A stretch of 64,000 bases of DNA from an uncultured Parachlamydiaceae bacterium (GCA_963742415.1 CAVULX010000004.1:1-64000), one strand, 5' to 3'; positions 1 through 56,218 are shown, counted from the stretch's first letter. The notes: generated from the letters alone by a model not told the origin. Numbers and translations are program-made.

Positions 1-2
1 TG

Positions 3-8879: not shown

Positions 8880-8914
8880 CTCGACTGGCGTGGTTGCGTC
8901 GCATCTCATTCAAT

Positions 8915-10260: not shown

Positions 10261-10266
10261 CGTGCG

Positions 10267-11171: not shown

Positions 11172-11176
11172 ATTCG

Positions 11177-12905: not shown

Positions 12906-13104
12906 CATCGTCACAGCCGGGACCGTCCTTGCCGCGGACGGGTACGCTGACGGCCCCGCTCGCCTCGCCGCCCTAGGCTCCTGAGAACACGACGCTGCCC
13001 GCGGAGTACGCCGGCCACCTCGCCTGGTGTAGGGGAAACGTCCGTTACCCCGACACCGAGCTCGACGGCCTCAGCCACCGTCGGAAGGAGACAACTCGCG
13101 GGGC

Positions 13105-37453: not shown

Positions 37454-37641
37454 ATTTTTATGTCGTCCTTACAGGACTCGATAGTTGTGCATTCTAGACC
37501 CAGGCCTTGCGGCCTGGACTATGATATTTTGGCCTTTCAGGCTTTATTCTAATGCTGAAGGCACGGAATGTTGTAGCCTAGGCCGTTAGGCCTAGGAAAG
37601 GAAATATACAATATGGAGTCCTGTAAGGACGATATAAAAAT
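37454..37641. repeat. 188-bp MITE/REP-like element with 26-bp terminal IRs and internal hairpins
   Basis: ATTTTTATGTCGTCCTTACAGGACTC (37454-37479) / GAGTCCTGTAAGGACGATATAAAAAT (37616-37641), 1 mismatch; inner CCAGGCC-ttgc-GGCCTGG and CCTAGGCC-gtta-GGCCTAGG. Confidence 0.85.
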
Positions 37642-37676: not shown

Positions 37677-38435
37677 ATGAAAGAAATAGAGAAACTTCGA
37701 GTCGTCCTTATTGTGCAAGCGCGCATGGGATCTGAGCGCCTCCCAGGAAAACCACTTAAAAAGGTTTTAGGGAAGACTTTGTTTGAATATCTCATTGAAC
37801 GTTTGCGGAGGGTCAAATATGCCGATGAGGTCGTCTTAGCAACGACGACTCTGCCTAAAGATGACCCCTTAGCAGCCTTAAGTCAGTCGCTTAAGATTTC
37901 CTATTTTCGTGGCAGTGAAGAAGATGTCTTGGATAGATTCTTACAAGCGGGGAAATTCTTCCGAGCCGATGTGGTTGTCCGAATTTCTGGAGATTGCCCT
38001 TTAATCGATCCTGCTTTGATTGATGAAGCCATCCGTTTCTTTTTAGATCATTATCCCCAATACGATCACGTTTCAAATTGTTTAAATAGAACCTATCCAC
38101 GAGGTATGGATGTCGAGGTTTTTTCGATGAGTTCCCTGGAAAAAGTAGCCAAGGAGTCTTCGCTGCCTGAAGAGCGGGAGCATGTGACCGTCTATTACTA
38201 TCGTCATCCTGAAACATTTGTTTTGGGAAGCTTAGAGGGAAAAAGGGATCTTTCCCATTACCGTTGGACCGTAGATACTCAAGAGGATTTTATGTTGATT
38301 TCCAAAATGCTGGAAAACATCTACCCCTCAACTCCCGAATTTACATTGGCAGATCTCCTTAGGGCTTCTGAGGCACATCCAGAGTGGAGGCTTATCAATG
38401 CGCACGTCCAGCAAAAACCTTTAACAAAGTCCTGA
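37677..38435 (+). CDS. SpsF-like cytidylyltransferase (CMP-nonulosonate synthetase family)
   Basis: IVQARMGSERLPGK, FRGSEEDVLDRF, RISGDCPLIDP, YPRGMDVE, REHVT, RWTVDTQED. Confidence 0.88.
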   Translation: MKEIEKLRVVLIVQARMGSERLPGKPLKKVLGKTLFEYLIERLRRVKYADEVVLATTTLPKDDPLAALSQSLKISYFRGSEEDVLDRFLQAGKFFRADVVVRISGDCPLIDPALIDEAIRFFLDHYPQYDHVSNCLNRTYPRGMDVEVFSMSSLEKVAKESSLPEEREHVTVYYYRHPETFVLGSLEGKRDLSHYRWTVDTQEDFMLISKMLENIYPSTPEFTLADLLRASEAHPEWRLINAHVQQKPLTKS

Positions 38436-38437
38436 GA

Positions 38438-40009: not shown

Positions 40010-40683
40010 AACACGGCAATCAGAGCAAATTGAAAGTTGTTTTAATCGATTTTGATGGAACCCTTGTTGATTCCATGGAGGATCTTTATGGAATTTACTT
40101 CGCTTTTTTAAGGGAGTACGGACATGAGGGAACGCCGGAGGAATTTGCGGAACTCAATGGGCCAACCATCAATGAAATTCTTGCAATGCTGATGAAAAAG
40201 TACCATTTGCCCGAGCCTTTAGAGAAACTGTTAGAAATTTACAAGGCCAGGCTGGAAGAATATTATGGAAAAACAGCAGTACCCTATCCAGGAGTCGTAG
40301 AGTTTTTGATGAGAATTCGGAAGGAGGGGATAAAATCGGCATTAGTGACTTCTGCGAAGCGCTCTTTTGTGGATCCCTTTTTGAAGCGGCATCATCTCGA
40401 GCAGTATTTCAGCCATATTGTGACAGCAGATGGAGTTTCCCATGGAAAACCCAACCCTGAAATCTATCTAAAAGCATTGCAAGTTCTGGGGATTCAACCA
40501 TCCGAGGCTTTGGCTATTGAAGATTCTCTAAATGGGGTATTATCTGCAACTTCGGCTGGCATCTATACGTGGAGGATCAATTCAAAATTATCAAATGAAC
40601 CAGATATAAAAAGTCATGACAGTCGGTTAGAATTGCCCAATTGGAAATCTATTGAGGAGCTATTTACTGAAACATATGGATGA
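39961..40683 (+). CDS. HAD-family phosphatase
   Basis: IDFDGTLVDS, LVTS, GKPNPEIY, IEDSLNG; true start probably later (~40000-40030). Confidence 0.9.
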   Translation: MCHFGGAWNPKRGLDLKHGNQSKLKVVLIDFDGTLVDSMEDLYGIYFAFLREYGHEGTPEEFAELNGPTINEILAMLMKKYHLPEPLEKLLEIYKARLEEYYGKTAVPYPGVVEFLMRIRKEGIKSALVTSAKRSFVDPFLKRHHLEQYFSHIVTADGVSHGKPNPEIYLKALQVLGIQPSEALAIEDSLNGVLSATSAGIYTWRINSKLSNEPDIKSHDSRLELPNWKSIEELFTETYG

Positions 40684-41398
40684 TTACCAACAGTTTAAAT
40701 TATCACCCCAGTTTTCCATCATTGTAAATCCGTTTTCTCGAGGTTTTGAATTGTCGGATCATGACAAGATTTTAATGGAAAATATCTGGCGGAGCGAAGA
40801 GATCCAGAATCCTAAACTGTTCAACGGCCAGATTTTAAACTTAATTCAAGTGCGTGACAATGAGGTTGAAGCCGAGTTTGTCGATTACAAGTACTATATC
40901 GCACAATTGAGAAATCCCCAATTTCAAGATATTTTAAATCTTTCTCCTATAAGTATTAGCGGAATTACTTTGGCCGGGAGCAAAATTCTTATCGGTTTAA
41001 GAGGTAAGGAGTTGACAACATATCCTGAGGCCTATGAGCTGGTTCCTTCAGGAGGGATCGATCCGCGCGCTTTAGTGGAGGGGAAGATTGACCTTTTGAA
41101 ACAATTTGAGTTGGAGTTATGGGAAGAGACCGGAATCTCTGTCTCTGAAATTAAAGATTATCGACTCCTCAATTTAATCTATGACCGAAAAAGTAAGATC
41201 TATGAGATTTGTGCCGAGCTGCAAGTCAACTATGGGGTTATTAAAGAAGAGCTGATCACTGAAGGAAAGGAGTATCAACAGTTGATGTGGGTACCACGAT
41301 CGGAAATTTCTTCTTTTATAAGGAAGAAAGGCGATAAATTTGTCCCTTTTTCCCTCTTCCTCTTAAAGTCATTAATCAGGGGCAGGGGGGATTTTTAA
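40676..41398 (+). CDS. NUDIX-like hydrolase
   Basis: LVPSGGID...ELELWEETGI (Nudix box variant). Confidence 0.7.
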   Translation: MDDYQQFKLSPQFSIIVNPFSRGFELSDHDKILMENIWRSEEIQNPKLFNGQILNLIQVRDNEVEAEFVDYKYYIAQLRNPQFQDILNLSPISISGITLAGSKILIGLRGKELTTYPEAYELVPSGGIDPRALVEGKIDLLKQFELELWEETGISVSEIKDYRLLNLIYDRKSKIYEICAELQVNYGVIKEELITEGKEYQQLMWVPRSEISSFIRKKGDKFVPFSLFLLKSLIRGRGDF

Positions 41399-41926
41399 CA
41401 GGATAGGCAGGATCGCAAGCGGCAGGATAAGCAGGATGTTAAAGATAAGAGCTCGTAGGAAAAAAACGATAGTTTTATACACGAAAATAAAAAAATATTA
41501 TCATCTTTTTAAAATCTTTAAACTTTTAAGTTATAATTTTAATTATAAAAAAGTAATTATAAAATGGTTTTTATATGAGAGAAATAACAGATAGTTTAAA
41601 AAGTGCTTTTAATAGTTTCAAAAGTACTTATAACAGTATATCAAAATTAGATATTTTAATCGCGGCCGTAGACAGTGCTGTTGTTGGCTCATGACTGGCG
41701 GAATATTTGGTGCGATGGGTTTTGTAGTAGAATTTTTGGATAGAGAAGCAAGAATGCCAATACGAAAGAAATTGACTATGGTTGCGACAATAGCCATCGT
41801 AACTGGTGGGCTCAAGTTGATTGCTAATATTGCAACTATCGCAATTGCTAAGGCAAATAATAGAGGTTAATTTTAAATCCTGCTTATCCTGCCGCTTGCG
41901 ATCCTGCCCATCCTGTTAAAAAATCC
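41389..41926. repeat. Long-IR element, copy 1 (about 50-bp arms around ~440 bp)
   Basis: GGATTTTTAACAGGATAGGCAGGATCGCAAGCGGCAGGATAAGCAGGAT (41389-41437), near-perfect reverse complement at 41877-41926. Confidence 0.9.
41575..41870 (+). CDS. Two overlapping small ORFs (41575-41694, 41691-41870) or one frameshifted ~98-aa hydrophobic protein inside the IR element
   Basis: MREITDSLKSAFNSFKSTYNSISKLDILIAAVDSAVVGS* and MTGGIFGAMGFVVEFLDREARMPIRKKLTMVATIAIVTGGLKLIANIATIAIAKANNRG*; AT-rich promoter-like stretch upstream. Confidence 0.5.
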
Positions 41927-41950
41927 TCCTTATCCCTGATAAAAATCCTG

Positions 41951-44900
41951 CTATCCCTGATCTTTTTTAAGACGCAACATCAGAATATCCAAAAAATTAT
42001 CGACGGCCTGCAGAGTAGATGGAAGAGATCGGATGATTTTCCCTTCGATAAATTCTTCTATAGTTGCGTCAAGGTTGGCTAAATCTATCGAAAACCCTTT
42101 TGTGATACTTTCCAGCTCCTCTTTTTGTTCTGGCCTCAGCATCCCTTTTGATAAAGAAAAGTTCAACTGGTCCAAGAACCGCAATTGGTTTAAGAGCTGT
42201 TGAGATTCAGATAGAGCATCTGAATTGTACCGATAAAGCTTTTTTAAAATCGGTTCCAAAATTTTTATACGATCTTCCAACTGGTCTATTATTGTTGCAG
42301 GTAGTTCTTTAGTGTATGGCTTGATTCTATCTAAAAATTTTTGAAGTTGATGGGAATGACAAAAAGGTTTACCTCGAAAATCAGTAAACAATAAATGAGA
42401 AGAGCCTTCCCCTTCATCAAACAGCGGGAGATATCCCATCAAGGCTTGCAAAATACTTTCTATGAGGACGGCTTCTTTTAATAAAGCGGACAACCCCCAA
42501 GAATAAGCGTTTGATCCTTTTATACCCAAACGACTTGAAAAATTGGCTAAGTCTAAATTCCGATTTTTCAAGTCATTTGGGTATAGATATAAAAAAAGAT
42601 TTTTGAGACCTTCTAAAGCCCCCCCACACTCCTTCAATACGCTGCTGATCTCGGTTTTTAATTTAAAATCCTTGTTTGAATTGAAATGAGATAAGTGAAG
42701 CCTGTGTAATTTTTGCCCTTCATACAATTTGCTTTCGGTTTTGTTTAATTGAGGGATGATTGAGTGGCTCATCGCTAATTGAGTAGATTTGGATTGAATT
42801 TGCAAATCCTTGCAGATTCCAGGCAAAAGGGAAAGTTCTATTTTAACAGTAAGTTCCTCTGGAGAAACAGAGCTCATCTGCTCTACATCGACAGAGAGCA
42901 AGAGATTTTTTAGGACTTCCATTCCGTTTTCAAAAAAGCGGCGGCGATTTTCTTGCACATATTTCCACCCCTTTTGAATTAGAGAGGGGAGCGATTCTTG
43001 CTCACTGAAGGAGATCTCTAATCCATGGCATAGCTCAAGTCGAGCTTGGTTTTGCTCTTTTTTAGAAAGGGAATTTGGTTCCAAGTTTGACAAATAAAGA
43101 ATTTGAGAAACTCCTTGCATCATAAAATCAAAAGATTTGCTGCTATATCGCCCAGAGATATCAATGATGGCATCTAAAGAATTTAGCCAGTTGATTTGAT
43201 CGGCGGATAAAGGGAGTGGAAACTGAATTTGCTCATGATTTTTCTCTAACTCTTGATAAAGCAAGCCGAGTTGATGTTTGTGAACATGATCTAAAGGGTT
43301 CGAACGAGTAAACAGAAGTTTTATAGCTTGTTCTATAGCTATACTCATTCTTAAGACGATAAAGGAAAACTGATGAGCTGTTATTTTTTCCGCGTTGATA
43401 TATTGTGCATGGGTTAATAGATCTTCAACCGATGATTGTAAGTTGGATTTCGCTTCATTTTTTATTGATTCAAATTGAATTTCGCCCTCATTAACAACGC
43501 CGTAATGGACCTTTTGAAATTCATAAATCGGCACCCTTTTGCATAAGCTACGGATCAAATTAAGTTTTTCGACGGAGTGGAGGTCTTTCCATTTTTGCTG
43601 AAATTCGAGATAAGATTTTTTTACTTCTCGTTCATGCGTTTCTTTTGAAATAGCCATTTCAGGAGAAGATGAGGCATTCAAATTCAAAAGTTTTGAAGGG
43701 ATAAAAACCTGTCGCAAAATAGGGTGAGGAGAGGGCGCCTTGGCTTGAGGCTTTTTGATATTAGAGCTTCGACCTTTTCTTTTTTTTCTTTTGCTCGAAG
43801 GGGCCTTTTTCTCTGTCTCAGAGAGAAGTTCTCGCTTTAACGCGAAACGGAGAAGGGGTTTAGCGCCTTTAACAAAAGTGGTTTTCAGAGAATCGGTGAT
43901 TATTTCTATTACCGGAGACAAACCGGGAATGCAGTTAGAGATATTTTCAAAGAATTCAATCACTTCTTCAACGCAGGAGATGTAAAGTTGAATTTTATGC
44001 TCTAAAAGCAGATCCTCTTGGGCAAGCAGCTTTAGGCTTCTTTCTCTCCAATCGGCCAAAGATTGGGATGAGAAGTTATAGGAAGTGGAAACGTGTTTCT
44101 CTAAAAGTAAAAAAAGTTGGACAAAATTATAATTTAATAACTCAGAAAGGATCTTCAACTGTTTCTCAAGCAAGTGCCATTCTGTCGGGGATGGCTCTGG
44201 ATTTGTCTCCTTAATAGGGGTATTTAAAAGATCCAAAAGGTCGATCGAGCGAAATTCATTAAAAATCGTGATGATTATATCTAAACTATTGATGAAAGGG
44301 GTGGCGACACGGTTAAAGTTTTTATGGATTTTTGCCATATTTTTTAAGCTTTCCCTATTAAGTCGTAGCTGGGAAATAAGACCTACCAAGCTTTCAAACA
44401 ATGTTAACTTTTGTTCAGGGCTTAGATGACTAAAGTTTTTATCAATAAATTCATTAAAATGAAAAATACGAGACAACGTTTGCTCAACAAGTTGTAATAT
44501 GTTTTTCTTTTCTGCTCCTTCATATTTATAAATTGGCGTTGCTTGCTCGTTCAACTTTATCAAAATAAAATCTATTATAGAAAAAGTTCCGGAATGAAAA
44601 TTTTTAATTTCAAAGCCTAGTTGCTCAACAAGTTTTTTTACTTGCAATACCACTGCTCTTGAATTATTGATATTCTCTGTGACAATTTTATATTGATCAT
44701 ATAAATAGATACGGTATTTGTGTACAATTACGTGCAATTCTTCTAACCCCTTTTTGTTAGAACGCTTTTCAAATTCATTTAGCCAAAAGAAGTGTCGAGC
44801 CGAGTTTTCAATTAATTCTTTTTCTAAAAACGTCTCCTGTTGATTGATCAAACAAAAAAAAGATTTTGTTTGGATAATCTGCCCCAATTTTTCGCGTTCT

Positions 44901-45799
44901 ATATTAATTTGAGTTGAAATTTTGCCAAAATCTCTTAAAATTTCTAAAAAGCTATTCGCTAGTTCACCAGATACTTCTCTGATTTTAGTCGAAATCTTTT
45001 CCCCTAAATAGGTATTAAGAAAGGTTAAATCTTCCAACAATGAAGATTGATAGTCTGGAAACATCTCATTGTTGCTGTGCGCCTCTAAAAGTAGTGGGAA
45101 GAGCGCTTCCGGAAAAGTTAAACAATCTTTAAGAATTTTTATAAGTGAACTTATTTCTGAGTGTGCTTCCGATGTTAATATACTCCGCGTGATTTCCCCA
45201 AATTTATTTGTAAAAATGTTGTTGTTTAGTTGATCTTTAAAAACTCCTACATCTTTATTGATTAGAAAGCCCTGAAAAGCTGCAAAAAAAATGTGTAAAC
45301 TCTTAAGAATTAGATCGATTAATTTTTCCTTGGGGACTTGCCGCTCTTTAAAGTCTTTTGTGAGCATTGGCACTGCCTGATTTTGATTTGCCTTTTTATG
45401 TTTGAGCAAGAGAGAGGGAAGGCGTATTTCTATCCATCGCATGATGTTTATCATAGCGCCGTTAAGCACAGGAATTTTTTTATTTATTTCTTCACAAGCT
45501 GCCTCAACTTTCTCAAGGGAAGCGCGATCAAGGTTTATCTCTTGAATAAAAGGTTCCCAACCCATCATAGAAATAAATAAGGCGTGGACTTCAAAAGTTG
45601 TAAGTTGGCCAAATAAGTTGTTCAAGGTTTTAGGATCGACCTCTGTGACTCTGTGTGCAACCTGTATTGGAATACTCCCTACGGGCTTTAAAATAAGCTG
45701 CTTATATAAAAAAAATAAACCCGATGGATGTTTTTTTATACATTCATAAACAAGGGATGATGCAGCGATGGGAGGAAGGGGAGACGATGTTGGTTCCAT
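41951..45799 (-). CDS. Large paralog 1 (1282 aa), two HEPN-like domains, basic NLS-like patch
   Basis: Intact ORF; AIEQAIK...KHQL..L...GRY and LIES..QA...SHQL..FL...YRY; KRKKRK patch. Confidence 0.8.
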   Translation of the reverse strand: MEPTSSPLPPIAASSLVYECIKKHPSGLFFLYKQLILKPVGSIPIQVAHRVTEVDPKTLNNLFGQLTTFEVHALFISMMGWEPFIQEINLDRASLEKVEAACEEINKKIPVLNGAMINIMRWIEIRLPSLLLKHKKANQNQAVPMLTKDFKERQVPKEKLIDLILKSLHIFFAAFQGFLINKDVGVFKDQLNNNIFTNKFGEITRSILTSEAHSEISSLIKILKDCLTFPEALFPLLLEAHSNNEMFPDYQSSLLEDLTFLNTYLGEKISTKIREVSGELANSFLEILRDFGKISTQINIEREKLGQIIQTKSFFCLINQQETFLEKELIENSARHFFWLNEFEKRSNKKGLEELHVIVHKYRIYLYDQYKIVTENINNSRAVVLQVKKLVEQLGFEIKNFHSGTFSIIDFILIKLNEQATPIYKYEGAEKKNILQLVEQTLSRIFHFNEFIDKNFSHLSPEQKLTLFESLVGLISQLRLNRESLKNMAKIHKNFNRVATPFINSLDIIITIFNEFRSIDLLDLLNTPIKETNPEPSPTEWHLLEKQLKILSELLNYNFVQLFLLLEKHVSTSYNFSSQSLADWRERSLKLLAQEDLLLEHKIQLYISCVEEVIEFFENISNCIPGLSPVIEIITDSLKTTFVKGAKPLLRFALKRELLSETEKKAPSSKRKKRKGRSSNIKKPQAKAPSPHPILRQVFIPSKLLNLNASSSPEMAISKETHEREVKKSYLEFQQKWKDLHSVEKLNLIRSLCKRVPIYEFQKVHYGVVNEGEIQFESIKNEAKSNLQSSVEDLLTHAQYINAEKITAHQFSFIVLRMSIAIEQAIKLLFTRSNPLDHVHKHQLGLLYQELEKNHEQIQFPLPLSADQINWLNSLDAIIDISGRYSSKSFDFMMQGVSQILYLSNLEPNSLSKKEQNQARLELCHGLEISFSEQESLPSLIQKGWKYVQENRRRFFENGMEVLKNLLLSVDVEQMSSVSPEELTVKIELSLLPGICKDLQIQSKSTQLAMSHSIIPQLNKTESKLYEGQKLHRLHLSHFNSNKDFKLKTEISSVLKECGGALEGLKNLFLYLYPNDLKNRNLDLANFSSRLGIKGSNAYSWGLSALLKEAVLIESILQALMGYLPLFDEGEGSSHLLFTDFRGKPFCHSHQLQKFLDRIKPYTKELPATIIDQLEDRIKILEPILKKLYRYNSDALSESQQLLNQLRFLDQLNFSLSKGMLRPEQKEELESITKGFSIDLANLDATIEEFIEGKIIRSLPSTLQAVDNFLDILMLRLKKDQG

Positions 45800-45893
45800 A
45801 CGAGTCCATATTAAAAAACGGTCTTAGAAGTTTGTGAACACCTTCTTAGCCTATTTATTCATCATTTAACCTGCAATACCATTTTAATAAAAC

Positions 45894-46092
45894 CAGGGAT
45901 AGCCGGATAGAGGAGGATTTTTTAACAGGATAGGCAGGATCGCAAGCGGCAGGATAAGCAGGATGTTAAAATAAGAGCTCAAAGGAAAAAAACAAAGGCA
46001 AATAATAGAGGTTAATTTTAAATCCTGCTTATCCTGCCGCTTGCGATCCTGCCCATCCTGTTAAAAAATCCTCCTCTATCCTGCTATCCCTG
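45894..46092. repeat. Long-IR element, copy 2 (about 70-bp arms, interior mostly absent)
   Basis: Arms 45894-45964 and 46022-46092 with 2 mismatches; same arm sequence as copy 1. Confidence 0.9.
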
Positions 46093-49000
46093 ATCTTTTT
46101 TAAGATGCAAAATCAGAATATCTAATAATTTATCAACGGCCTGCAGAGTCGATGGAAGAGATCGGATGATTTTCCCTTCGATAAATTCCTCCGTGGTTGA
46201 GTCAAGGTTGGCTAAATCCTTTGAAAACTCTTTTGTGATACTTTCCAGTTCCTCTTTTTGATCTGGCCTCAGCGCCCCTTTAGATAAAGAAAAGTTCAAC
46301 TGGTCCAAGAACCGCAATTGGTTTAAAAGCTGTTGAGATTCAGATAGAGCATCTGAATTATACCGATAAAGCTTTTTTAAAATCGGTTCCAAAATTTTTA
46401 TACGATCTTCCAAGTGGTCTATCATTGTTGCAGGCAGTTCTTTAATATGGGGCTTGATTTTATCTAAAAATCTTTGAAGTTGATGGGAACGACAGAAAGG
46501 TTTTCCACGAAAATCTGTAAACAATAAATGGGAAGAACTTTCCCCTTCATCGAAGAGAGGGAGATACCCCATCAAAACTTGCATCACGCTCTCGATAAGG
46601 ACCGCTTCTTTTAATAAAGCGGCCATTCCCCAAGCATAAGCGCTGGATCCTTTTAAATATGGAAAAAGATTTTTGAGACTCTGTAAAGCCCCCTCACTTT
46701 CCCTCAATGCAATGCTGATCCAAGTTTTTAATTTAAAATTCTCAGTTGATTTGAAATGAGGTGAGTGGAGCTTGTGCAAATTTTGCCCTTTATACAATTT
46801 GTTCCAGATCGTGTCCATTTGGGTAATCAAATTATTTATAGATATTTGAGGAGATTTGGTTTGAACTTTCAAATCCTTGAAGATTCCCGACAAAAGGGAA
46901 AGGTCTGCTTTAAAAGAGAGTTTTTCAGAGGGAACAACGCTCATGTTTTCTACGTCTACAGAGAGCAAGAGATTTTTCAAGACTTCCAATCCGGTTTCAA
47001 AAAACTGGCGCCGATTTTCTTGCACATATTTCCACCCCTTTTGAATTAGAGAGGGGAGCGATTCTTGTTCACTGAAAGGGATCCCTAATCCTTGGCAAAG
47101 CTCAAATCGGGCTTGGTTTTGTTCCTCTTTAGAAAGGGAATCCAACTTCAAAGTTGATAAATAAAGAATTTGAGAATTTCCAATGACCATAAAATCAAAA
47201 GATTTGCTGGTGTACCGTCCAGATATCTCAATGATGGCATCCAAAGAATTTAACCAATTGGTTTGATCGGCGGATAAAGGGAGTGGAAACTGAATTTGCT
47301 CTTGATTCTTCACTAACTCTTGGTAAAGCAAGCCAGGTTGATGCTTATGAACATGGGTTATAGAGTTCTTACGGTTAAACAACATTTTTATCGCTTGCTC
47401 TATGGCAATGCTCATTCTTAAGACGAGAAATGAAAACTGATGGGGTGTTATTTTTTCCGATTCGATCTGTTCTGCATGGGTTAATAAATCTTCAACCGAT
47501 GATTGTAAGTTGGATTTTGCTTCATTTTTTATTGATTCGAATTGATTTTCCCCTTCTTTAAGAGAACCGTAATGGACCATTTGAAATTCATAAGTCTGCA
47601 ATCTTTTGCATAAGCTATGGAGCAACTGAAGTCTTTCCCAAAAAGGGAGATCTTTCCAATTCTGTTGAAATTCAAGGTACGATTTTTTTACTTCTTGCTC
47701 ATGAGCTTCTTTTTGAATTGCAATTTCAGGAGAAGATGAGGGATTCAAATTTAAAAAGTTCAAAGGAATAAATGGGTGCCCCAAGCCAAGGGAGGGCTGC
47801 GATCTCTTGACTTGCGGCTTTTTGGCAACAGGCTTTCGTTTCCCCTTTTTTCTACTGTTTAAGCGCTTTGTTTTCGGTGTCGAAGCGAGAAGTTCTTGCC
47901 TTATTGTGTAACGGAGGAGAGGTTTAGAGTTTTCAATAAAACTACCATTTAGATTTTCAATTAAAAATTCTACGATTGAAGAAATTTTGGCGTCATCGAT
48001 AGCTAGATTGGAAAAGAAAGTAATAATTTGTTCAACTAAGGAGAAATAATTTTTAATTTTATTCTCCAAAAGCATACCCTCTTGATTCAACAGGGCTTGG
48101 CATCTTTCTTTCCACTTAACAATGAAAATGGAAAAAGGTTTGTGGAAATGGGCGAGATTTTTTTCTAAATGAGATATCATCGTCTCATCAAAATAACCAA
48201 GAAGTACATCAGAAAGGTTCTTCAGATGATTCTTGAGCAAGTCCAATTCTGTCAAAGATGGATTTGGATTTGACTCTTTAATAGGACTAATCAAAAATCC
48301 TATAAGATCTAAACAGGAATAAAATTTCCGATAAATTTGGATGCTACTCTCCAAACTTTTTATAAAAGGAGCTGCAACAATCTTTAAATCACTATTCTTT
48401 TCTGCAAAGTTTTTTAACACATTTTTTTGCTTTTCTAAACGCTGAATTAATAGTGAGAAATTTCTGAAAGCATTTGATTTCTTCTTATAACTTAGTTTGC
48501 TAAGATCAGTACCAATAATTTTAATTCCTAAAATGCTGTCGATAACCTCCCAAAGGGGGTGCGTTTCATTTCCTAAACATTTATAAATTTGCTTTGATTG
48601 ATCGTATAATTTTATTGAAATTATATCAAATAAAGATAAAATTCCGGATTGATAATTTTTAAATTCAATCCCTAAATCTTTAGCATACTTTATTACTTGG
48701 CAAACTAGATCACTAGAAGTTGCGAGGCCTGCTGCACCGCTTTTATAGTGATTATCTAAATATATATGATATTTATGAAAAATGTCATTTATTTCTTCAG
48801 CCTTTGAGATTTTTGTTTTTATGCATTGACGATATTTGCCTAACCAGAGGTTGTATGTTTCTTCAGTTTTCTTTAATTTTTTTAAGATACTATCATAACT
48901 TTCGGCTTTACCATTTATGCTTAAAAAAGATTTTTCTTTAATGAGCTGAAAAAATTTTTCTCTTTCTTCATCAATTTGATTTAAAATTTTTATAAATTCG

Positions 49001-49896
49001 TTTACGTACAACAAAAAATCATGATGTAAATTTTTAGATTCTTTCTCAATTTTAGATAAAATTTTTTCTGTGTTATAGTTATTAATAAAAAATAGATCTT
49101 CTAACAGCGTCGATTGATAACTTGGGAATAGCTCAATTCGATCCCTGGTCATTAAAAGAAGTGGAAAAAGCTCCTTAGGATAAGTTAAACAAGTTTTAAT
49201 AATTTTTATAATGTTAATCAATTCATTATGAGCATCTGGTGTTAATATATTTCTAGTGAATTCCCAATATGAATCATTAGTAAAAATATTGTTTTCTAAT
49301 TGTCCGGTAAGGATTATTTCCTCTTTATATAGTAAATATCCTTCAAATGCTTTAAATAAAGTATTTAAATCAATAAGGATCATATCAAGAATTTCTACCT
49401 TTGAAGATTTTTTTTCTTTAAATTCTTTTGCGATGATTTTCACACGTAAATTTTTGGTTGTTTTTTTATTTTTGAGTAGGAGATTAGGAAGACGTATTTC
49501 TAACCATCGCATGATGTTTATCATGTCCCCATTAAACTCAGGAAACATTTCCTTTATTGATTTATAAGCCGTCTTAATGTCCTCAATAGAAGATTTATCT
49601 GCTTCTATTTTATCCACAAAGGGTTTCCATCCTTTAATAGAAATAAATAAAGCATGGATTTCTAAAACGGTAAGGTTGTTAAATAAATCTTCAGAGACAA
49701 TGGCTTTGCGTATACCCGATTGATTTGCTAAAGCATCTGAAGGTATGGTTCCTACAGGCTTTAAACAAAGTTGCCTGCAAAGATCATCTACGCGGTTTAC
49801 ATTACTTTTTATGCTATCATACATTGTTTTTGGGAGGGTGGCATAAAAAGAAGAAGATGTTGCTGAAGGTTGTGTTGTTTGCATTATTGGATCCAT
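46084..49896 (-). CDS. Large paralog 2 (1270 aa), two HEPN-like domains, basic NLS-like patch
   Basis: Alignable to paralogs 1 and 3 along its length; RKKGKRK patch. Confidence 0.8.
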   Translation of the reverse strand: MDPIMQTTQPSATSSSFYATLPKTMYDSIKSNVNRVDDLCRQLCLKPVGTIPSDALANQSGIRKAIVSEDLFNNLTVLEIHALFISIKGWKPFVDKIEADKSSIEDIKTAYKSIKEMFPEFNGDMINIMRWLEIRLPNLLLKNKKTTKNLRVKIIAKEFKEKKSSKVEILDMILIDLNTLFKAFEGYLLYKEEIILTGQLENNIFTNDSYWEFTRNILTPDAHNELINIIKIIKTCLTYPKELFPLLLMTRDRIELFPSYQSTLLEDLFFINNYNTEKILSKIEKESKNLHHDFLLYVNEFIKILNQIDEEREKFFQLIKEKSFLSINGKAESYDSILKKLKKTEETYNLWLGKYRQCIKTKISKAEEINDIFHKYHIYLDNHYKSGAAGLATSSDLVCQVIKYAKDLGIEFKNYQSGILSLFDIISIKLYDQSKQIYKCLGNETHPLWEVIDSILGIKIIGTDLSKLSYKKKSNAFRNFSLLIQRLEKQKNVLKNFAEKNSDLKIVAAPFIKSLESSIQIYRKFYSCLDLIGFLISPIKESNPNPSLTELDLLKNHLKNLSDVLLGYFDETMISHLEKNLAHFHKPFSIFIVKWKERCQALLNQEGMLLENKIKNYFSLVEQIITFFSNLAIDDAKISSIVEFLIENLNGSFIENSKPLLRYTIRQELLASTPKTKRLNSRKKGKRKPVAKKPQVKRSQPSLGLGHPFIPLNFLNLNPSSSPEIAIQKEAHEQEVKKSYLEFQQNWKDLPFWERLQLLHSLCKRLQTYEFQMVHYGSLKEGENQFESIKNEAKSNLQSSVEDLLTHAEQIESEKITPHQFSFLVLRMSIAIEQAIKMLFNRKNSITHVHKHQPGLLYQELVKNQEQIQFPLPLSADQTNWLNSLDAIIEISGRYTSKSFDFMVIGNSQILYLSTLKLDSLSKEEQNQARFELCQGLGIPFSEQESLPSLIQKGWKYVQENRRQFFETGLEVLKNLLLSVDVENMSVVPSEKLSFKADLSLLSGIFKDLKVQTKSPQISINNLITQMDTIWNKLYKGQNLHKLHSPHFKSTENFKLKTWISIALRESEGALQSLKNLFPYLKGSSAYAWGMAALLKEAVLIESVMQVLMGYLPLFDEGESSSHLLFTDFRGKPFCRSHQLQRFLDKIKPHIKELPATMIDHLEDRIKILEPILKKLYRYNSDALSESQQLLNQLRFLDQLNFSLSKGALRPDQKEELESITKEFSKDLANLDSTTEEFIEGKIIRSLPSTLQAVDKLLDILILHLKKDQG

Positions 49897-50029
49897 AAAA
49901 GCCTTGAATTTAAAAATTAAAAAAATATAGTTTAGTTATTAATTAATTAACTTGCAATACGATTTTAATAAATATAGAACTTGTTGCATTATCATTAATA
50001 AGGCAACAATTTTAAGCAATATCAGGGGT

Positions 50030-53000
50030 TCAATTTTGCTTAATTTTTATGAGGAGAATATCTAATAATTTATCGACGGCCTTCAGAGTCGATGGAAGAG
50101 ATCGGATGATTTTCCCTTCGATAAATTCTTCTATAGTTACGTCAAGGTTGGCTAAATCTATTGAAAACCCTTTTGTGATACTTTCCAGCTCCTCTTTTTG
50201 ATCTGGCCTCAACGTCCCTTTTGATAAAGAAAAGTTCAACTGGTCCAAGAACCGCAATTGGTTTAAAAGCTGCTGAGATTCAGATAGAGCATCTGAATTA
50301 TACCGATAAAGCTTTTTTAAAATCGGTTCCAAAATTTTTATACGATCTTCCAAGTGGTCTATCACTGTTGCAGGCAGTTCTTTAATATGGGGCTTGATTT
50401 TATCTAAAAATTTTTGAAGTTGATGGGAATGGCAGAAAGGTTTTCCATGAAAATCTGTAAACAATAAATGGGAAGAACTTTCCCCTTCATCGAAGAGAGG
50501 GAGATACCCCATCAAGGCTTGCATCATGCTCTCGATAAGGACCGCTTCTTTTAATAAAGCGGCCATTCCCCAAGCATAAGCGCTGGATCCCTTTAAATAG
50601 GGAAAAAGATTTTTGAGACTCTGTAAAGCCCCCTCGCTTTCCTTTAATGCACTGCTGATCCCAGTTTTTATCTCAGTTGATTTGAAATGAGGTGAGTGGA
50701 GTCTGTGCAAATTTTGTCCATTATACAATTTGTTCCAGATCATGTCCATTTGGGTAATCAAATTAGACATTTGAGAAGATTTGGTTTGAATTTGCAAATC
50801 CTTGAAGATTCCCGACAAAAGGGAAAGATCTGCTTTAAAAGAGAGTTTTTCAGAGGGAACAACGCTCATGTTTTCTACGTCTACAGAGAGCAAGAGATTT
50901 TTCAGGACTTCCAATCCGGTTTCAAAAAACTGGCGCCGATTTTCTTGCACATATTTCCACCCCTTTTGAATTAGAGAGGGGAGCGATTCTTGTTCACTGA
51001 AAGGGATCCCTAATCCTTGGCAAAGCTCAAATCGGGCTTGGTTTTGTTCCTCTTTAGAAAGGGAATCCAATTCCAAGGTTGATAAATAAAGAATTTGAGA
51101 ATTTCCAATGACCATAAAATCAAAAGATTTGCTGGTGTACCGTCCAGATATGTCAATGATACTATCTAGAGAATTTAACCAATCGGTTTGATCGGTGGAT
51201 AAAGGGAGAGGAAACTGAATTTGCTCTTGATTCTTCACTAACTCTTGGTAAAGCAAGCCAGGTTGATGCTTATGAACATGGGTTATAGAGTTCTTACGGT
51301 TAAACAACAGTTTTATCGCTTGCTCTATAGCAATACTCATTCTTAAGACGAGAAATGAAAACTGATGGGGTGTTATTTTTTCCGATTCGATCTGTTCTGC
51401 AAGGGTTAATAAATCTTCAACCGATGATTGTAAGTTGGATTTTGCTTCATTTTTTATTGATTCGAATTGATTTTCCCCTTCTTTAAGAGAACCGTAATGG
51501 ACCATTTGAAATTCATAAGTCTGCAATCTTTTGCATAAGCTATGGAGCGACTGAAGTCTTTCCCAAAAAGGGAGATCTTTCCAATTCTGTTGAAATTCAA
51601 GGTACGATTTTTTTACTTCTTGCTCATGAGCTTCTTTTTGAATTGCAATTTCAGGAGAAGATGAGGGATTCAAATTTAGCATTTTCCAGGGGATGAATAA
51701 CTGACGCATGGGTTTAGGTAGAGGGGGTGTCTTCACCAGCGGCTTTTGGGCATTGGGCTTTTGACCTCTTTTTTTTCTTTGGTTTGCGCCTCCCTTTTTC
51801 GGAGTCGAAGAGAGAAGTTCCTGTCTCATCGCGAAAGTAAGGAGGGGTTTAGCAGTTTCAATATAAGTGTTTTTTAGAATATTAATTATCGATCCTAGAT
51901 GCTCATTGATAAAAAGTGCACGCTTATCGTTAACTAGATTTGTAAAGAAATCAATCACTTCTTCAACGGAGGAGATGTAATTTTGAATTTTATTTTCTAA
52001 AGGCAAACCCACTTTTTTCAATTGAGCCTGGAACCTTTCTTTCCAGTTAACGATAAATATGTTAAAAGGGGCAAAGCGCTTTCCTAAAAATGATATTGAT
52101 TTTTCATCAAAAAATTCAAATAATTCCTCAGAAAGAATCTTGAGTTTTTTTTGGAGAAAGTCTAGTTCTGCAGAGGATGGGATAGGGCTTGACTCTTTAA
52201 TAGGACTCCACAAAAGACCTAAGAGGTCGATACCAACATAAAAATGTTTAAAAATTTGGATGCTAATATCCAAATATTTTACAAAATCCTCAGTTACAGT
52301 CTTTAAATTAGGATATTTTTGTAAGACTTGTCTTAATAATTTTGTTTTAAATTCTAGATCGGAGACAATTCTGTAATAATTGCTAAGCGATTTTGATTTC
52401 TCATTATAACTTAGTTTACTTAAATCAATATCGATAATATTAATAGATAAAATGCCTTCAATAAGATGACGAATGATTCGATCGTCAGTACCAATACATT
52501 TAAAAATTTTTCTCGCTTGTTCATGTAATTTTATTAAAATTATATCTCCAAGAGAAAAAATTCCAGAATGAAAATTATTTAATTCAATGCCTAAATCCTT
52601 AGCACATTTTATAACGACGCAAACTGTCTCGCTAGAGTTTAAAATCGTGGATGCAACCATGTAATAGTGGTTATATAAATACAAATGATATTTTTTAATA
52701 ATTTCACACATTTCTTCCGTCTCTGATCCGGTTGCGTGGGGGCAATTTTCATATTTATGAACCCAATTGATGTAATTATCATTATTTTTACTTAATTTGG
52801 TTAAAGAATTCAAACTCTTAACCTCAGTCAATTTTAAAAATGTTCTATTTTTTATAATTGAATTCAAATTTTCTATGTCTTTATTAATCTCTATTAAAAT
52901 TTCTTTTATTTCATGTAAGGTTAATAAAAAACTTTTACGTAATTTTTGGGGTATGTTATTCGGAATTTTTTCTCCATAATAGTTATCAATATAATGCAGT

Positions 53001-53764
53001 TCACTTAGGAATGAAGATTGAAAATCTGGAAAAATCTCTATTCGAGGCCGAGTCGTTAAAAGAAGCGGAAAAAGCTCCTTTGGATAAGTCAAACAATTTT
53101 TTATAATTTTTATAAGATTCACCATTTCATTGTGGGCTTCAGAAGTTAATGTAGTTTTGGTGAATTCCCAATAGGAATCGTTAATAAAAATATCGTTTTT
53201 TAATTGATTGGTAAGGATTTTTTCATCATTTAAATTTAAATATTCTTGAAAAGCGTTAAATAATAGATTTAAATCAGTAAGAATAATTTCAGCAAGATCA
53301 GCTTTTAGAACTTCCTTTTCTTTAAATTCTGTTGTGATTACTCTTACTTTTATGTTAACCGCTTTTTTATGTTTCAACAAGAGGTAGGGAAGACGTATTT
53401 CTAACCATCGCATGATGTTTATCATGTCGCCGCTAAGCTCGGGGATTAGTTCATTTATTCCTTTGTAAGTAGTCTCAATGTCCTCAATAGATTTTTTTGC
53501 TTCGATTTTTTCTCTAAAAGGTTTCCAACCTTTAATAGAAATAAATAGGGCATGGACTTCTAAAGTTGTAAGCCGTCCAAATAATTCTTTAGTGTTGATG
53601 ACTTCAACCTTACCAGGCTGAAATTTTAAAGCTTCTTCTGGAATACTCCCTACAGGTTTTAAACAAAGCTGCCTACAAAGGAAGTCTATGCCCCCTCTAT
53701 TTTTTTGTATGTCTTCAAAGAGTATTAATGGCAGGGAGGAGTAAAAAGAAGATGTTGGTTCCAC
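50030..53764 (-). CDS. Large paralog 3 (1244 aa), two HEPN-like domains, basic NLS-like patch
   Basis: GTG start; C-terminal half nearly identical to paralog 2; RKKRGQK patch. Confidence 0.8.
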   Translation of the reverse strand: MEPTSSFYSSLPLILFEDIQKNRGGIDFLCRQLCLKPVGSIPEEALKFQPGKVEVINTKELFGRLTTLEVHALFISIKGWKPFREKIEAKKSIEDIETTYKGINELIPELSGDMINIMRWLEIRLPYLLLKHKKAVNIKVRVITTEFKEKEVLKADLAEIILTDLNLLFNAFQEYLNLNDEKILTNQLKNDIFINDSYWEFTKTTLTSEAHNEMVNLIKIIKNCLTYPKELFPLLLTTRPRIEIFPDFQSSFLSELHYIDNYYGEKIPNNIPQKLRKSFLLTLHEIKEILIEINKDIENLNSIIKNRTFLKLTEVKSLNSLTKLSKNNDNYINWVHKYENCPHATGSETEEMCEIIKKYHLYLYNHYYMVASTILNSSETVCVVIKCAKDLGIELNNFHSGIFSLGDIILIKLHEQARKIFKCIGTDDRIIRHLIEGILSINIIDIDLSKLSYNEKSKSLSNYYRIVSDLEFKTKLLRQVLQKYPNLKTVTEDFVKYLDISIQIFKHFYVGIDLLGLLWSPIKESSPIPSSAELDFLQKKLKILSEELFEFFDEKSISFLGKRFAPFNIFIVNWKERFQAQLKKVGLPLENKIQNYISSVEEVIDFFTNLVNDKRALFINEHLGSIINILKNTYIETAKPLLTFAMRQELLSSTPKKGGANQRKKRGQKPNAQKPLVKTPPLPKPMRQLFIPWKMLNLNPSSSPEIAIQKEAHEQEVKKSYLEFQQNWKDLPFWERLQSLHSLCKRLQTYEFQMVHYGSLKEGENQFESIKNEAKSNLQSSVEDLLTLAEQIESEKITPHQFSFLVLRMSIAIEQAIKLLFNRKNSITHVHKHQPGLLYQELVKNQEQIQFPLPLSTDQTDWLNSLDSIIDISGRYTSKSFDFMVIGNSQILYLSTLELDSLSKEEQNQARFELCQGLGIPFSEQESLPSLIQKGWKYVQENRRQFFETGLEVLKNLLLSVDVENMSVVPSEKLSFKADLSLLSGIFKDLQIQTKSSQMSNLITQMDMIWNKLYNGQNLHRLHSPHFKSTEIKTGISSALKESEGALQSLKNLFPYLKGSSAYAWGMAALLKEAVLIESMMQALMGYLPLFDEGESSSHLLFTDFHGKPFCHSHQLQKFLDKIKPHIKELPATVIDHLEDRIKILEPILKKLYRYNSDALSESQQLLNQLRFLDQLNFSLSKGTLRPDQKEELESITKGFSIDLANLDVTIEEFIEGKIIRSLPSTLKAVDKLLDILLIKIKQN

Positions 53765-53826
53765 AAAAAAGCCAAGTTAGTTTTTCATTATTTAACGTAA
53801 GTTGCAAATAATTAAATTTATCGTCT

Positions 53827-53893
53827 CTCTGTGTTCTCTGTGAACTCTGTGGTTGAATTTTAATAAACCACAGAGATCACAGAGAACACAGAG
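53827..53893. repeat. 28-bp IR built from 9-nt (..CACAGAG) units
   Basis: CTCTGTGTTCTCTGTGAACTCTGTGGTT / AACCACAGAGATCACAGAGAACACAGAG, 1 mismatch, 11-nt loop. Confidence 0.9.
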
Positions 53894-54040
53894 GTTTTTT
53901 TTAACTTGATTACACTCAGTAATTTTCAACTTACATTATTTAACTTGTAACAAAATAATAAAAATTAGGGATATTAATTGATACAGGTCTTTTTAACTAT
54001 ATTTTCACTATAAAAGGAAAACGAGAAAAAAGCAAACAGA

Positions 54041-54081
54041 AGAGGCACGGAGAATAGTTTGATCTTTGTCTCTGTGCCTCT
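54041..54081 (-). terminator. Hairpin downstream of the PEP-CTERM gene
   Basis: AGAGGCACGGAGA / TCTCTGTGCCTCT; T-rich tail on the minus strand. Confidence 0.55.
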
Positions 54082-54091
54082 AAAGAAATCT

Positions 54092-54820
54092 TTACTGAGC
54101 TGTTCGTTGTTTTCGTTTTAAAAAGATGCAGAGGGCTAGTGCGGATCCTAATATTAGGTATGTTGAAGGTTCGGGGGTAACAACACCCATGGTTGTAATG
54201 ACGGCTTCCAGTGTAGCAACATTAGTCTTATTTTCTTGAGTCAAGAACTGGTTGACTAGAACGCCATTCTTTTTGAATCCGAAAAGCTCTAAAGTATATT
54301 GGACCCCACCAATGGTGAATGTGCTCGAAGCAGGAACGTTGTTGGTGAAAGTGACAATATCATCGCAAACAGATATAGATCCTGGTGGACATTGGCCAGC
54401 GATGTTAGGAGTTTCATCATGCTGGAAATTGTAGATAAAATTTAAATTATTTATTTGTGTTCCATTTATATTTAAGCTGACCAGAGTGCTTAATGTTGCT
54501 CCTGTAATTCCGCTACCATGCGGGATAACTTGGTTGAAATGTGTAAACGTTGCAAGGTCAAAGGGTGTGCCGATAGTCACACTATAAAAAAAGGGCGTTA
54601 TAGGGGAGAATAAGTAAGCGCTTCGATCAGGGTTTGTACCACCCCAAGAGATTTCATTAGTTCCCACCCCTTGGACATTGGATCCACCGGATACACTGGT
54701 CCATGCACCAGAAACATCCGTGACAGTAATGCTATCAGCCGAGAAAATTGTGGCAGGAGCTATGGTTATAAAAGCTAGAGAGAGGATAAATAATGCTTTT
54801 AAATTTGATTTAGTGACCAT
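54092..54820 (-). CDS. PEP-CTERM sorting domain protein (THxN-type)
   Basis: Signal peptide; FDLATFTHFNQVI, HDETPN; C-terminal TPEPSTY + TM + KRKQR. Confidence 0.9.
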   Translation of the reverse strand: MVTKSNLKALFILSLAFITIAPATIFSADSITVTDVSGAWTSVSGGSNVQGVGTNEISWGGTNPDRSAYLFSPITPFFYSVTIGTPFDLATFTHFNQVIPHGSGITGATLSTLVSLNINGTQINNLNFIYNFQHDETPNIAGQCPPGSISVCDDIVTFTNNVPASSTFTIGGVQYTLELFGFKKNGVLVNQFLTQENKTNVATLEAVITTMGVVTPEPSTYLILGSALALCIFLKRKQRTAQ

Positions 54821-55108
54821 ATAATCCTCTTATTTATTATCAATTAAGAATACTACTAGAATTATTATATTAATTAAAATAATTATTAATCAATTGATAT
54901 ATTAACTATCCTGGTTCAATTATTTTAATTTATTTATTACTTTGGTAGATGCAAGAAATATGCCAGTTTTTAATCTAGGAAAGGAAGACCCTGGAAAAGG
55001 GGGATTTCACATTTTTTCGTCGTCAGAAATCTTTTCGTATTTTAAAATAAAGCATTCATAACGAATAAGTTCTGTTTTTTAGCATTTAAACAAGGATGAG
55101 GTGAAACG

Positions 55109-56218
55109 ATGCTTATAGGAATACCAAAAGAAATTAAAAATCATGAATACCGTGTAGGTGCGACCCCTGCGATGGTGAGAGCTTTAGTGGAAATGGGACA
55201 TCAGGTCCTTGTCGAAACGTTAGCCGGGTCGACGATCGGTTTCACAGATGAGATGTATGCCGCCGCAGGAGCTAAAATAGCAAAGACGCCATCTGAAGTT
55301 TATAAAGCTGAAATGATCATCAAAGTAAAAGAGCCCCAGGAAAGTGAATTTGCTCTTTTGAGGGAAGGACAGATTCTGTTTTGTTATTTACATTTGGCTC
55401 CCGATCCAATCCAGACCAAGCATCTGCTGGAAAGGAAAGTTGTTGGGATTGCTTATGAGACAGTGACAGATCTCCAAGGAAGATTGCCCCTTTTGATCCC
55501 AATGAGCGAAATTGCCGGGAGAATTTCCATTCAAGTCGGAGCGACATGCATGCAATTAAACCATGGGGGGAAAGGGTTGCTTTTAGGGGGAGTTCCTGGA
55601 GTATTTCCCGCTCGGGTTGTTGTTATTGGGGGGGGAATTGTGGGAACCGAAGCTGCAAGGATGGCGATGGGGTTGGGAGCTAATGTAACGATTATCGATA
55701 AAGACCTCAATCGGCTGCGTCAATTGGATGCGTTGTATGGTCCTAATTTAAAAACTTTGTACTCGACATCTTCCTCGATAGAAGAGGCTGTGATCCGTGC
55801 GGACATTGTCATAGGCGCGGTTTTGATTCCTGGGAAGCTGGCTCCAAAGCTTGTCACAAGGGAGATGGTCAAGAAGATGACACCCGGTTCTGTCATTGTC
55901 GATGTGGCAATTGATCAGGGGGGGTGTGTCGAAACGGCTTATCCCACGACCCATGCTACCCCTACATTTATCACTGAAGGGGTGATCCATTATTGTGTGA
56001 CGAATATGCCTGGGGCTTGTGCGCGCACTTCCACCCAAGCATTGACAAATGCCACGATGGATTACGCGTTGACGATAGCAAATAAGGGTTGGAAACGGGC
56101 GTTGAAAGAATGCCAGGGACTGCGCCAAGGTCTCAATGTTTGCTTGGGGAAGGTGACCAATGCTTCTGTTGCGGCCGACCTTGGTTATGAATATGAAGCG
56201 CCTGAAAGTCTTCTTTAG
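55109..56218 (+). CDS. ald: Alanine dehydrogenase
   Basis: IGIPKEIKNHEYRV, KVKEP, YLHLA, PMSEIAGR, GGGIVG, DVAIDQGGC, YCVTNMPGA. Confidence 0.97.
   Translation: MLIGIPKEIKNHEYRVGATPAMVRALVEMGHQVLVETLAGSTIGFTDEMYAAAGAKIAKTPSEVYKAEMIIKVKEPQESEFALLREGQILFCYLHLAPDPIQTKHLLERKVVGIAYETVTDLQGRLPLLIPMSEIAGRISIQVGATCMQLNHGGKGLLLGGVPGVFPARVVVIGGGIVGTEAARMAMGLGANVTIIDKDLNRLRQLDALYGPNLKTLYSTSSSIEEAVIRADIVIGAVLIPGKLAPKLVTREMVKKMTPGSVIVDVAIDQGGCVETAYPTTHATPTFITEGVIHYCVTNMPGACARTSTQALTNATMDYALTIANKGWKRALKECQGLRQGLNVCLGKVTNASVAADLGYEYEAPESLL

Follow-up and report, generated by a model that had tools for sequence, protein, structure and literature searches.

HEPN domains are central to conflict systems that operate at the level of RNA, such as Cas13, Csm6, RNase L and the abortive-infection toxins. 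Cas13, the effector of type VI CRISPR systems, has two HEPN domains in one polypeptide and requires canonical Rx4-6H motifs. In chlamydiae, effectors which reach the host nucleus by way of a type III secretion system (T3SS) are exemplified by the DUF582 family and by NUE of Chlamydia trachomatis. To our knowledge few effectors have been identified in chlamydiae of the kind considered here, and we know of no established activity for the PF05168-type subgroup of HEPN domains, which is devoid of the canonical catalytic His. Here, we describe a tandem array of three genes at 41951-53764 of a 64,000-nucleotide stretch of DNA from an uncultured Parachlamydiaceae bacterium (GCA_963742415.1 CAVULX010000004.1:1-64000; henceforth the window), i.e., the first 64 kb of contig 4 in a four-contig genome of 2.69 Mb. 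Each gene encodes a protein of about 1250 amino acids (aa) in which a large helical domain precedes two HEPN-like repeats. We regard it as a new family, with an architecture of its own, in the HEPN superfamily; none of the curated families accounts for it.

The HEPN fold is all-alpha, comprises about 100-120 aa arranged in two helical hairpins and may contain inserts (PMC3710099). As described there, its most conserved feature is the Rx4-6H motif, the predicted RNase site, and many HEPN families carry a second conserved acidic residue in an Ex3[KR] context. HEPN-T domains of the AF0298 type (pdb 2hsb) and AbiV deviate from this pattern: the Arg is kept, the His of the motif is lost, and a strongly conserved second His, N-terminal to the motif, has been proposed as part of an alternative active site (PMC3710099). 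The Rx4-6H motif is equally lost in substrate-binding HEPN domains, and human sacsin is named among the possible non-catalytic binders (PMC3710099). Known HEPN-T domains are either stand-alone dimerising proteins of about 120-150 aa or C-terminal appendages, and many adjoin a minimal nucleotidyltransferase; a dyad of HEPN domains is carried by the eukaryotic Swt1 (PMC3710099).

All three genes of the array are on the minus strand and free of internal stops. Paralog 1 (41951-45799, 1282 aa, ATG start) is the most divergent; paralog 2 (46084-49896, 1270 aa, ATG start), both halves of which were modelled by AlphaFold2, provides the residue numbering throughout; paralog 3 (50030-53764, 1244 aa) starts with GTG. 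The gaps between the genes are 284 and 133 bp. Identity to paralog 1 is 57% and 59%, that between paralogs 2 and 3 is 70%. The C-terminal halves are 77-92% identical and the N-terminal halves are divergent. The first-pass annotation of this DNA had proposed three intact, co-oriented paralogs with a single layout, and the translated open reading frames (ORFs) bear this out. The strings which it quoted are likewise all present in the translations, i.e., the N-termini MEPTSS... and MDPIMQTTQPSATSSS, the basic patches KRKKRK, RKKGKRK and RKKRGQK, EDLL, AIEQAIK, KHQ(L/P)GLLY and GRY for repeat 1, and VLIES, SHQLQ and YRY for repeat 2. The MEPTSS N-terminus of paralog 3 aligns with the N-terminus of paralog 1.

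The two repeats share one motif set. Repeat 1 spans residues 781-915 of paralog 2 (47152-47556, minus strand) and contains E833-x3-K837, H852 and R894-Y895; its equivalents are at 43085-43489 in paralog 1 and 51077-51481 in paralog 3, both minus strand. Repeat 2 spans residues 1051-1209 (46270-46746, minus strand) with E1102, H1123, H1138 and R1178-Y1179, and the equivalents are at 42137-42676 in paralog 1 and 50210-50677 in paralog 3, again on the minus strand. In each repeat a Glu is followed after about 20-35 residues by a His and after about 40 more by Arg-Tyr. Aligned against each other with hhalign, repeats 1 and 2, cut from a 68-sequence alignment, scored 98.8% (E 1.4e-16) over 120 columns. 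With independent small alignments of 10 and 12 sequences, built from genome loci only, the score was 95.0% (E 3.8e-8). Further, a hidden Markov model (HMM) of either repeat matches the opposite repeat in relatives (e.g., i-E 1.6e-14 and 3.6e-9). Profile-profile comparison and cross-matching HMMs thus establish that the two repeats noticed at the outset are a genuine duplication and not a chance resemblance.

The three proteins are members of a real, rare and unannotated family with a fixed architecture. An exhaustive search with a profile of the C-terminal half against 1.84 billion protein representatives yielded 78 clusters at E <= 0.001, 63 of these at E <= 1e-10; 58 of the 78 are 1032-1401 aa long with the profile match falling at the C-terminus. 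Among the listed representatives paralog 3 (P0001) is the only member from the source genome. Pfam and NCBIfam gave no significant family match for the three window proteins, NCBIfam producing noise only, and protein searches by word index, whether queried with the C-terminal region or a 60-sequence alignment, returned solely the window's own paralogs. To judge by titles and abstracts, none of the papers listed on HEPN proteins in chlamydia, on HEPN-type T3SS effectors and on effectors of Parachlamydiaceae with nuclear localisation signals (NLS) deals with the family.

A query with a single protein matched four out of 41 relatives' genomes, the source genome included, with one full-length relative at 33% identity. 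With a profile of 60 members, matches at E <= 1e-5 were obtained in at least 14 of the 400 genomes that were sampled from the phylum, and this count is a floor, as two candidates were scored per genome and one genome was left unscored. The 13 matching genomes other than the source genome are labelled as the same family or the same order. Broken down by family among the sampled genomes, matches were found in 5/45 (f1), 4/90 (f8), 0/69 (f5) and 0/29 (f20). All genomes in which the family has been found so far belong to the same order of chlamydiae as the window. The first-pass label "chlamydial" was apt: the closest full-length relative among named records is on a contig of a Parachlamydiaceae metagenome-assembled genome (MAG), and two members are named "hypothetical protein [Parachlamydia sp.]", both from one MAG. 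One homolog, P0063, is named "HEPN domain-containing protein" by its source. Extra copies occur elsewhere, at two places in genome G237 and as two proteins of one Parachlamydia MAG. In genome G004 the relative is split into overlapping plus-strand ORFs of 464 aa (L009:3087-4481) and 774 aa (L009:4450-6774), the latter of which includes the two HEPN-like repeats; a frameshift or decay of the gene may account for the split.

In the full-length alignment of 60 members, in which mean column identity is 16%, E833, H852, R894 and H1138 are invariant, and P245, L247, Q834, E1102, H1123, L1125, R1178 and Y1179 are conserved in at least 90%.

The relationship of these repeats to HEPN domains emerges from profile-profile comparisons. 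As reference we used a profile of the eight best small PF05168 proteins from other chlamydial genomes (64-88 bits, reading frames of 124-150 aa). When 13 windows tiled over the family alignment were compared with this profile, repeat 1 scored 74.7% (E 2.6e-5) and repeat 2 scored 90.6% (E 1.3e-6); the remaining 11 of 13, which served as controls, reached at most 0.6%. Over the alignments used, repeat 2 gave 83.3-90.6%, the lowest value being that of a small alignment, and repeat 1 gave 68.5-74.7% with deep alignments. In the hhalign output the family Glu is paired with the Glu of the AEKALK-type helix, the family His with the His of T/S-H-D/N-L, and RY with RY(P). Repeat 1 of P0063 (residues 802-894) reaches 23 bits with PF05168, above the Pfam cut-off of 22.

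Structure prediction points in the same direction. Modelled by AlphaFold2 from 68 sequences, residues 690-1270 reach a predicted local distance difference test (pLDDT) score of 90.7 and a predicted template modelling (pTM) score of 0.91; the model is all-alpha except for a small beta-hairpin inside repeat 2. Because of these values both repeats can be placed in one confidently packed unit. In a structural search against representatives (VIA-align), 4 of the 50 matches listed are titled as HEPN chains. These four align to repeat 2 and the C-terminal helices over 124-141 of their 126-151 residues, and their root-mean-square deviations of 3.2-3.9 are below those of nearly all receptor entries among the matches listed. 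The HEPN domain of sacsin (3o10_A) is among the structural matches listed. The internal duplication, the repeat-specific profile match, P0063 and the structural alignments together support the intramolecular double HEPN-like module that the first-pass annotation had suggested. Repeat 2 is very probably a HEPN domain, and by transitivity about the same holds for repeat 1.

This assignment has to be weighed against a number of failed detections. The proposed Pfam check for HEPN left all three window proteins unmatched, even at E up to 1, and 76 of 77 homologs had no Pfam HEPN match at E <= 0.01, P0063 alone exceeding the cut-off. With a 10-sequence alignment repeat 1 attained only 12.2% against the HEPN profile. 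No HEPN chain was found among PDB sequences at E <= 10 with a profile of either repeat or of the whole C-terminal half; the best entries for the three profiles were designed repeat proteins, STAT1 and a sulfhydryl oxidase at E 0.001-1.5. Of the suggested combination of AlphaFold and Foldseek, the first part held in that the C-terminal model is confident and all-alpha. The second failed: Foldseek against PDB returned nothing at E <= 0.001 for either half-model, its top entries being transporters and exportins with TM ~0.1. ESM Atlas, queried with the whole protein and with residues 1047-1270, gave no usable match.

With respect to the active site, the caveat raised at the outset, that no His follows the Arg-Tyr motif, is correct. 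In neither repeat is there a His within 4-6 residues after the Arg, which is invariant in repeat 1 (R894) and nearly so in repeat 2 (R1178). This lowers the case for a canonical RNase site and leaves the fold assignment unaffected, because exactly such a deviation is described for AF0298-type HEPN-T domains and AbiV (PMC3710099). H852 and H1138, invariant in the 60 members, align with the His of T/S-H-D/N-L in PF05168 proteins. The Ex3[KR] element is preserved in repeat 1 of all three paralogs as E833-Q-A-I-K837, the family consensus being EQxxKL; repeat 2 retains the nearly invariant Glu (E1102) but lacks the basic residue. To judge by these patterns the two copies appear to be of the HEPN-T (PF05168/AF0298) type, with an upstream His and an Arg-Tyr in place of Rx4-6H, a relationship which is specific if remote. 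This agrees with the AF0298-type variant as described in PMC3710099.

Two R-x5-H strings, RSNPLDH and RKNSITH, had also been pointed out at a non-canonical position. They are present, yet confined to the three paralogs, and only the His of KHQ is invariant in the family. Since they are not conserved beyond the three paralogs, they were rejected as displaced catalytic motifs. A preprint on AbiV was considered as experimental support for an alternative HEPN site and is of no help, because the AbiV studied therein, as far as the preprint describes it, carries Rx5H.

Compared with HEPN-T domains such as AF0298 (2hsb), sacsin (3o10) and the small proteins of MNT-HEPN pairs, the repeats have a common order of helices, a Glu in helix 2 (as Ex3K in repeat 1), a His opening the next helix and Arg-Tyr(-Pro) ahead of the last helix. 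Shared, too, are the loss of the His of Rx4-6H and a conserved His further upstream. The differences are equally clear. Here, two copies reside in one chain of about 1250 aa behind a large helical domain, with no nucleotidyltransferase in the neighbourhood, and 79 of 80 proteins scanned are below Pfam detection. In repeat 2, in addition, helices 2 and 3 are separated by an inserted beta-hairpin that brings an extra conserved His. With Cas13 and Swt1 the proteins share two HEPN domains in a single chain of similar size. Unlike Cas13, they have no canonical Rx4-6H, the window contains no CRISPR array or CRISPR RNA family, and there is no consistent PADLOC match (the models include Cas11e, which turned up among the weak matches; the presence of a Cas13 model was not checked). 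Unlike Swt1, they have no PIN domain in a Pfam scan.

The N-terminal halves tell a different evolutionary story from the C-terminal halves. For the pair of paralogs 2 and 3, the N-terminal halves show a synonymous divergence (dS) of 0.75 and the C-terminal halves one of 0.10; when either is compared with paralog 1, dS is 0.98-0.99 and 0.44-0.46, respectively. The ratio of nonsynonymous to synonymous divergence (dN/dS) is 0.46-0.50 for the N-terminal halves and 0.27-0.37 for the C-terminal halves. Over the last 300 nt the three genes are 93-95% identical at the DNA level, and paralogs 2 and 3 share one tract with 98% identity. It is the N-terminal halves that diverge faster. Because dS itself drops in the C-terminal halves, for which purifying selection alone is an insufficient explanation, the pattern points to gene conversion or to a more recent common origin of these halves. 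In our reading, one family member gave rise to the three genes by lineage-specific tandem duplication.

Upstream of the double module lie three further segments. Residues 1-16 of paralog 2 (49849-49896, minus strand), a candidate secretion signal, are rich in Ser, Thr and Pro and modelled without secondary structure, with a mean pLDDT of 48 over the first 10 residues. Across the family, Ser, Thr and Pro account for 24.4% of the first 25 aa versus 16.3% elsewhere, and charged residues are fewer than in the rest. The all-alpha N-terminal domain, conserved yet fast-evolving, covers residues 17-672 (47881-49848, minus strand; equivalents at 43817-45754 in paralog 1 and 51806-53746 in paralog 3, minus strand). 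It is followed by a basic linker with an NLS-like patch, residues 673-722 (47731-47880, minus strand; equivalents at 43664-43816 in paralog 1 and 51656-51805 in paralog 3, minus strand), which has low pLDDT and no secondary structure and is predicted to be disordered in both AlphaFold2 models. In the 55-residue slice 671-725 of paralog 2 there are 13 Lys and Arg versus 1 Asp and Glu. The classical NLS consensus is a K-K/R-x-K/R cluster; paralogs 1 and 2 have such a pattern in the linker (KRKKRK and KKGK, respectively) and paralog 3 has a weaker one. At least six Lys/Arg within 12 residues occur in the linker window of 21 out of 60 proteins as opposed to 20 of 393 other 140-aa windows, i.e., the basic cluster is enriched at the linker but not universal.

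No membrane-spanning segment was detected, the maximum 19-residue hydropathy (KD19) being 1.48. Taken together, a soluble chain, a predicted disordered, Ser/Thr/Pro-rich and charge-poor N-terminus and a basic cluster in the linker would be compatible with export. The proteins resemble the chlamydial T3SS nuclear effectors in that they are large, soluble, so far found only in chlamydiae and possess an unstructured N-terminus and a basic NLS-like patch. They differ in that there is no sequence relationship, neither Pfam nor NCBIfam giving a match here, and in that the family is unmatched in the 69 f5 and 29 f20 genomes sampled.

The neighbourhood of the array comprises genes for a Ser/Thr kinase, a DUF192 protein, a NeuB/cytidylyltransferase/HAD cluster, an alanine dehydrogenase, an Hsp70-like DUF3731 protein, an SNF2/SWIM protein and two small ORFs without family. 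Around the family members at nine related loci the gene content is different in every case, with metabolic or housekeeping functions throughout. In the window and at these nine loci no minimal nucleotidyltransferase adjoins a family gene, and no restriction or other defence gene is among the neighbours. PADLOC, which covers described systems only, gave no consistent match for 11 family members and the two flanking ORFs; two isolated weak matches to unrelated models had E 0.001-0.003. Neither a CRISPR-like array in 13200-64000 nor an Rfam CRISPR family in the window was detected. In 41300-55200, a promoter scan predicted 61 promoter-like sites versus 44.6 expected in AT-rich DNA; a scan of the same region found no minus-strand terminator in the intergenic gaps of the array, which does not settle whether the genes form an operon.

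Some observations on the surroundings may be added. The flanking ORFs at 54092-54820 (minus strand, 242 aa) and 40652-41398 (plus strand, 248 aa) have no Pfam or PADLOC family; the ORF upstream of the array has a sub-threshold PEP-CTERM-like C-terminus (E 0.002, 18.6 bits versus a cut-off of 20.7). Adjoining the array at 37677-40683 (plus strand) are a cytidylyltransferase, a GNAT-NeuB-SAF fusion and a HAD phosphatase, a set of genes that suggests the production of a sialic-acid-like (nonulosonic) sugar. Rfam reports an Acido-Lenti-1 small RNA at 37551-37596 (minus strand), flanked by the genes for the DUF192 protein and the cytidylyltransferase, at 47.1 bits (gathering threshold 37; E 1.6e-7). 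In the first 13,100 nucleotides of the window (1-13100) GC content is 55-78% versus about 40% beyond, with an abrupt switch between 13000 and 13300. This part encodes HisKA_3 histidine kinases, a LuxR-type response regulator, a DUF6596 sigma factor and a PLD-like protein; the chlamydia-like part starts with an FKBP-type isomerase and an aspartyl-tRNA synthetase. The segment has the look of a chimeric assembly at the end of the contig or of foreign DNA inserted recently, and the array is unaffected.

How might such proteins work? In the family as we see it, soluble all-alpha chains of about 1100-1400 aa are divided into four parts. A short N-terminus, predicted to be disordered and rich in Ser, Thr and Pro, comes first; it is followed by about 650 aa of helical domain without recognisable relatives, a predicted disordered basic linker of about 50 aa and, at the C-terminus, a compact module of about 550 aa with two divergent HEPN copies. 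The two HEPN copies would pack inside one chain in the manner of separate HEPN subunits in dimers; the high pTM of the C-terminal model supports a fixed arrangement of the two. The Glu, His and Arg residues of both copies may line a shared cleft, and this putative cleft would bind, and possibly cleave, RNA or a nucleotide ligand. Specificity for targets or partners would reside in the N-terminal domain, which evolves faster. In its patchy distribution, its extra copies and the contrast between diverging N-terminal and homogenised C-terminal halves the family behaves like a biological-conflict gene. The whole explanation, i.e., tandem duplicates with a double HEPN-T module, a shared RNA or nucleotide site and a role in conflict, we hold to be somewhat better than an even proposition. 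Putative export into an amoeba host is favoured over an intrabacterial role and is its least supported step. A more far-reaching version, in which these are putative effectors injected by type III secretion, the linker leads them to the nucleus or nucleolus of the amoeba, the Glu/His/Arg residues cleave host RNA and the N-terminal domains confer paralog-specific targets, is unlikely as a whole. Three points count against parts of the proposal: the shared cleft between the repeats is conjectural, the alternative His site is a published prediction for which no experiment was found in the sources consulted, and the basic patch is missing from about two thirds of the family.

Other explanations accommodate some of the same data. 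The proteins could act inside the bacterium as Abi-like defence or stress nucleases, with an N-terminal sensor controlling a HEPN effector that halts the cell's own translation upon phage attack or stress. HEPN domains are indeed widespread in defence and toxin systems (PMC3710099), small PF05168 genes do exist in chlamydial genomes (15/301), and patchy distribution, tandem expansion and a fast N-terminal joined to a conserved C-terminal half fit a sensor-effector pair. The defence alternative, already raised in the first-pass annotation, received no positive support, however: for the three proteins and eight homologs PADLOC gave no match bar the two weak unrelated ones, neighbours are different at every examined locus, metabolic or housekeeping in nature and without a defence gene, and no CRISPR-like array is present in 13200-64000. 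We consider this rather unlikely. Less probable still is a non-catalytic, HEPN-derived module which binds a ligand, RNA or protein, the whole protein being a scaffold or regulator; a binding role of this kind has been proposed for nucleotidyltransferase-fused HEPN domains and for human sacsin. The missing Rx4-6H in both repeats would be explained, and so would the sacsin HEPN domain (3o10_A) among the structural matches listed, given that substrate-binding HEPN domains have lost the motif and sacsin is possibly non-catalytic (PMC3710099). Against this stands the strict invariance of Glu, His and Arg in repeat 1 and of His in repeat 2 over 60 members, which exceeds what maintenance of a fold needs.

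Finally, the repeats could be a duplicated helical bundle of independent origin, the E...H...RY likeness to PF05168 having arisen by convergence. The failure of single-sequence and profile-to-sequence searches and the lack of a usable ESM Atlas match speak for this view. It has to contend with a profile-profile signal that is confined to the two repeats and absent from all 11 control windows, with three conserved motifs that align in the same order and at similar spacing, with one family member above the curated Pfam threshold, and with HEPN structures which, among the matches listed, align over 124-141 residues at deviations of 3.2-3.9. We regard it as improbable, and the double HEPN-T module with a conflict role is retained as the preferred reading.

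The array is not the only occurrence of HEPN-like proteins in chlamydiae. Small PF05168 genes exceed the cut-off in 15 of 301 sampled chlamydial genomes, and one genome, G124, has five matches; loci with such genes include L032, L056, L060 and L061 of G124. The source genome itself contains, outside the window, a reading frame of 960 aa (L063:1464-4343, plus strand; contig 4 601963-604842) with a Ser/Thr-rich N-terminus, a KRRKK patch and two E...THHL...RYP motif sets. PF05168 is its top Pfam match, at a sub-threshold 16.2-18.7 bits; the HMM of repeat 1 matches it at E 4e-4 and the HMM of the full family does not. A relative is found in G006 (E 4.5e-18), and G261 and G256 have frames of about 900-1000 aa whose HEPN matches are likewise below the threshold. 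By motif order and layout the 960-aa frame and its kin may constitute a second family of large double-HEPN chlamydial proteins.

What we have before us, then, is a natural single-chain pair of PF05168-type domains in which Glu, His and Arg are invariant or nearly so. Because the pair keeps these residues within one chain, the predicted alternative active site is directly testable by mutagenesis. If they are injected as outlined above, the proteins would be the first HEPN-domain effectors delivered by a bacterium into a eukaryotic host. The genes belong to a large, expanding and lineage-restricted chlamydial family with hallmarks of a host-interaction or conflict factor, and the possible second, shorter family of the same layout in the same genome hints at big double-HEPN proteins as a recurrent chlamydial theme.

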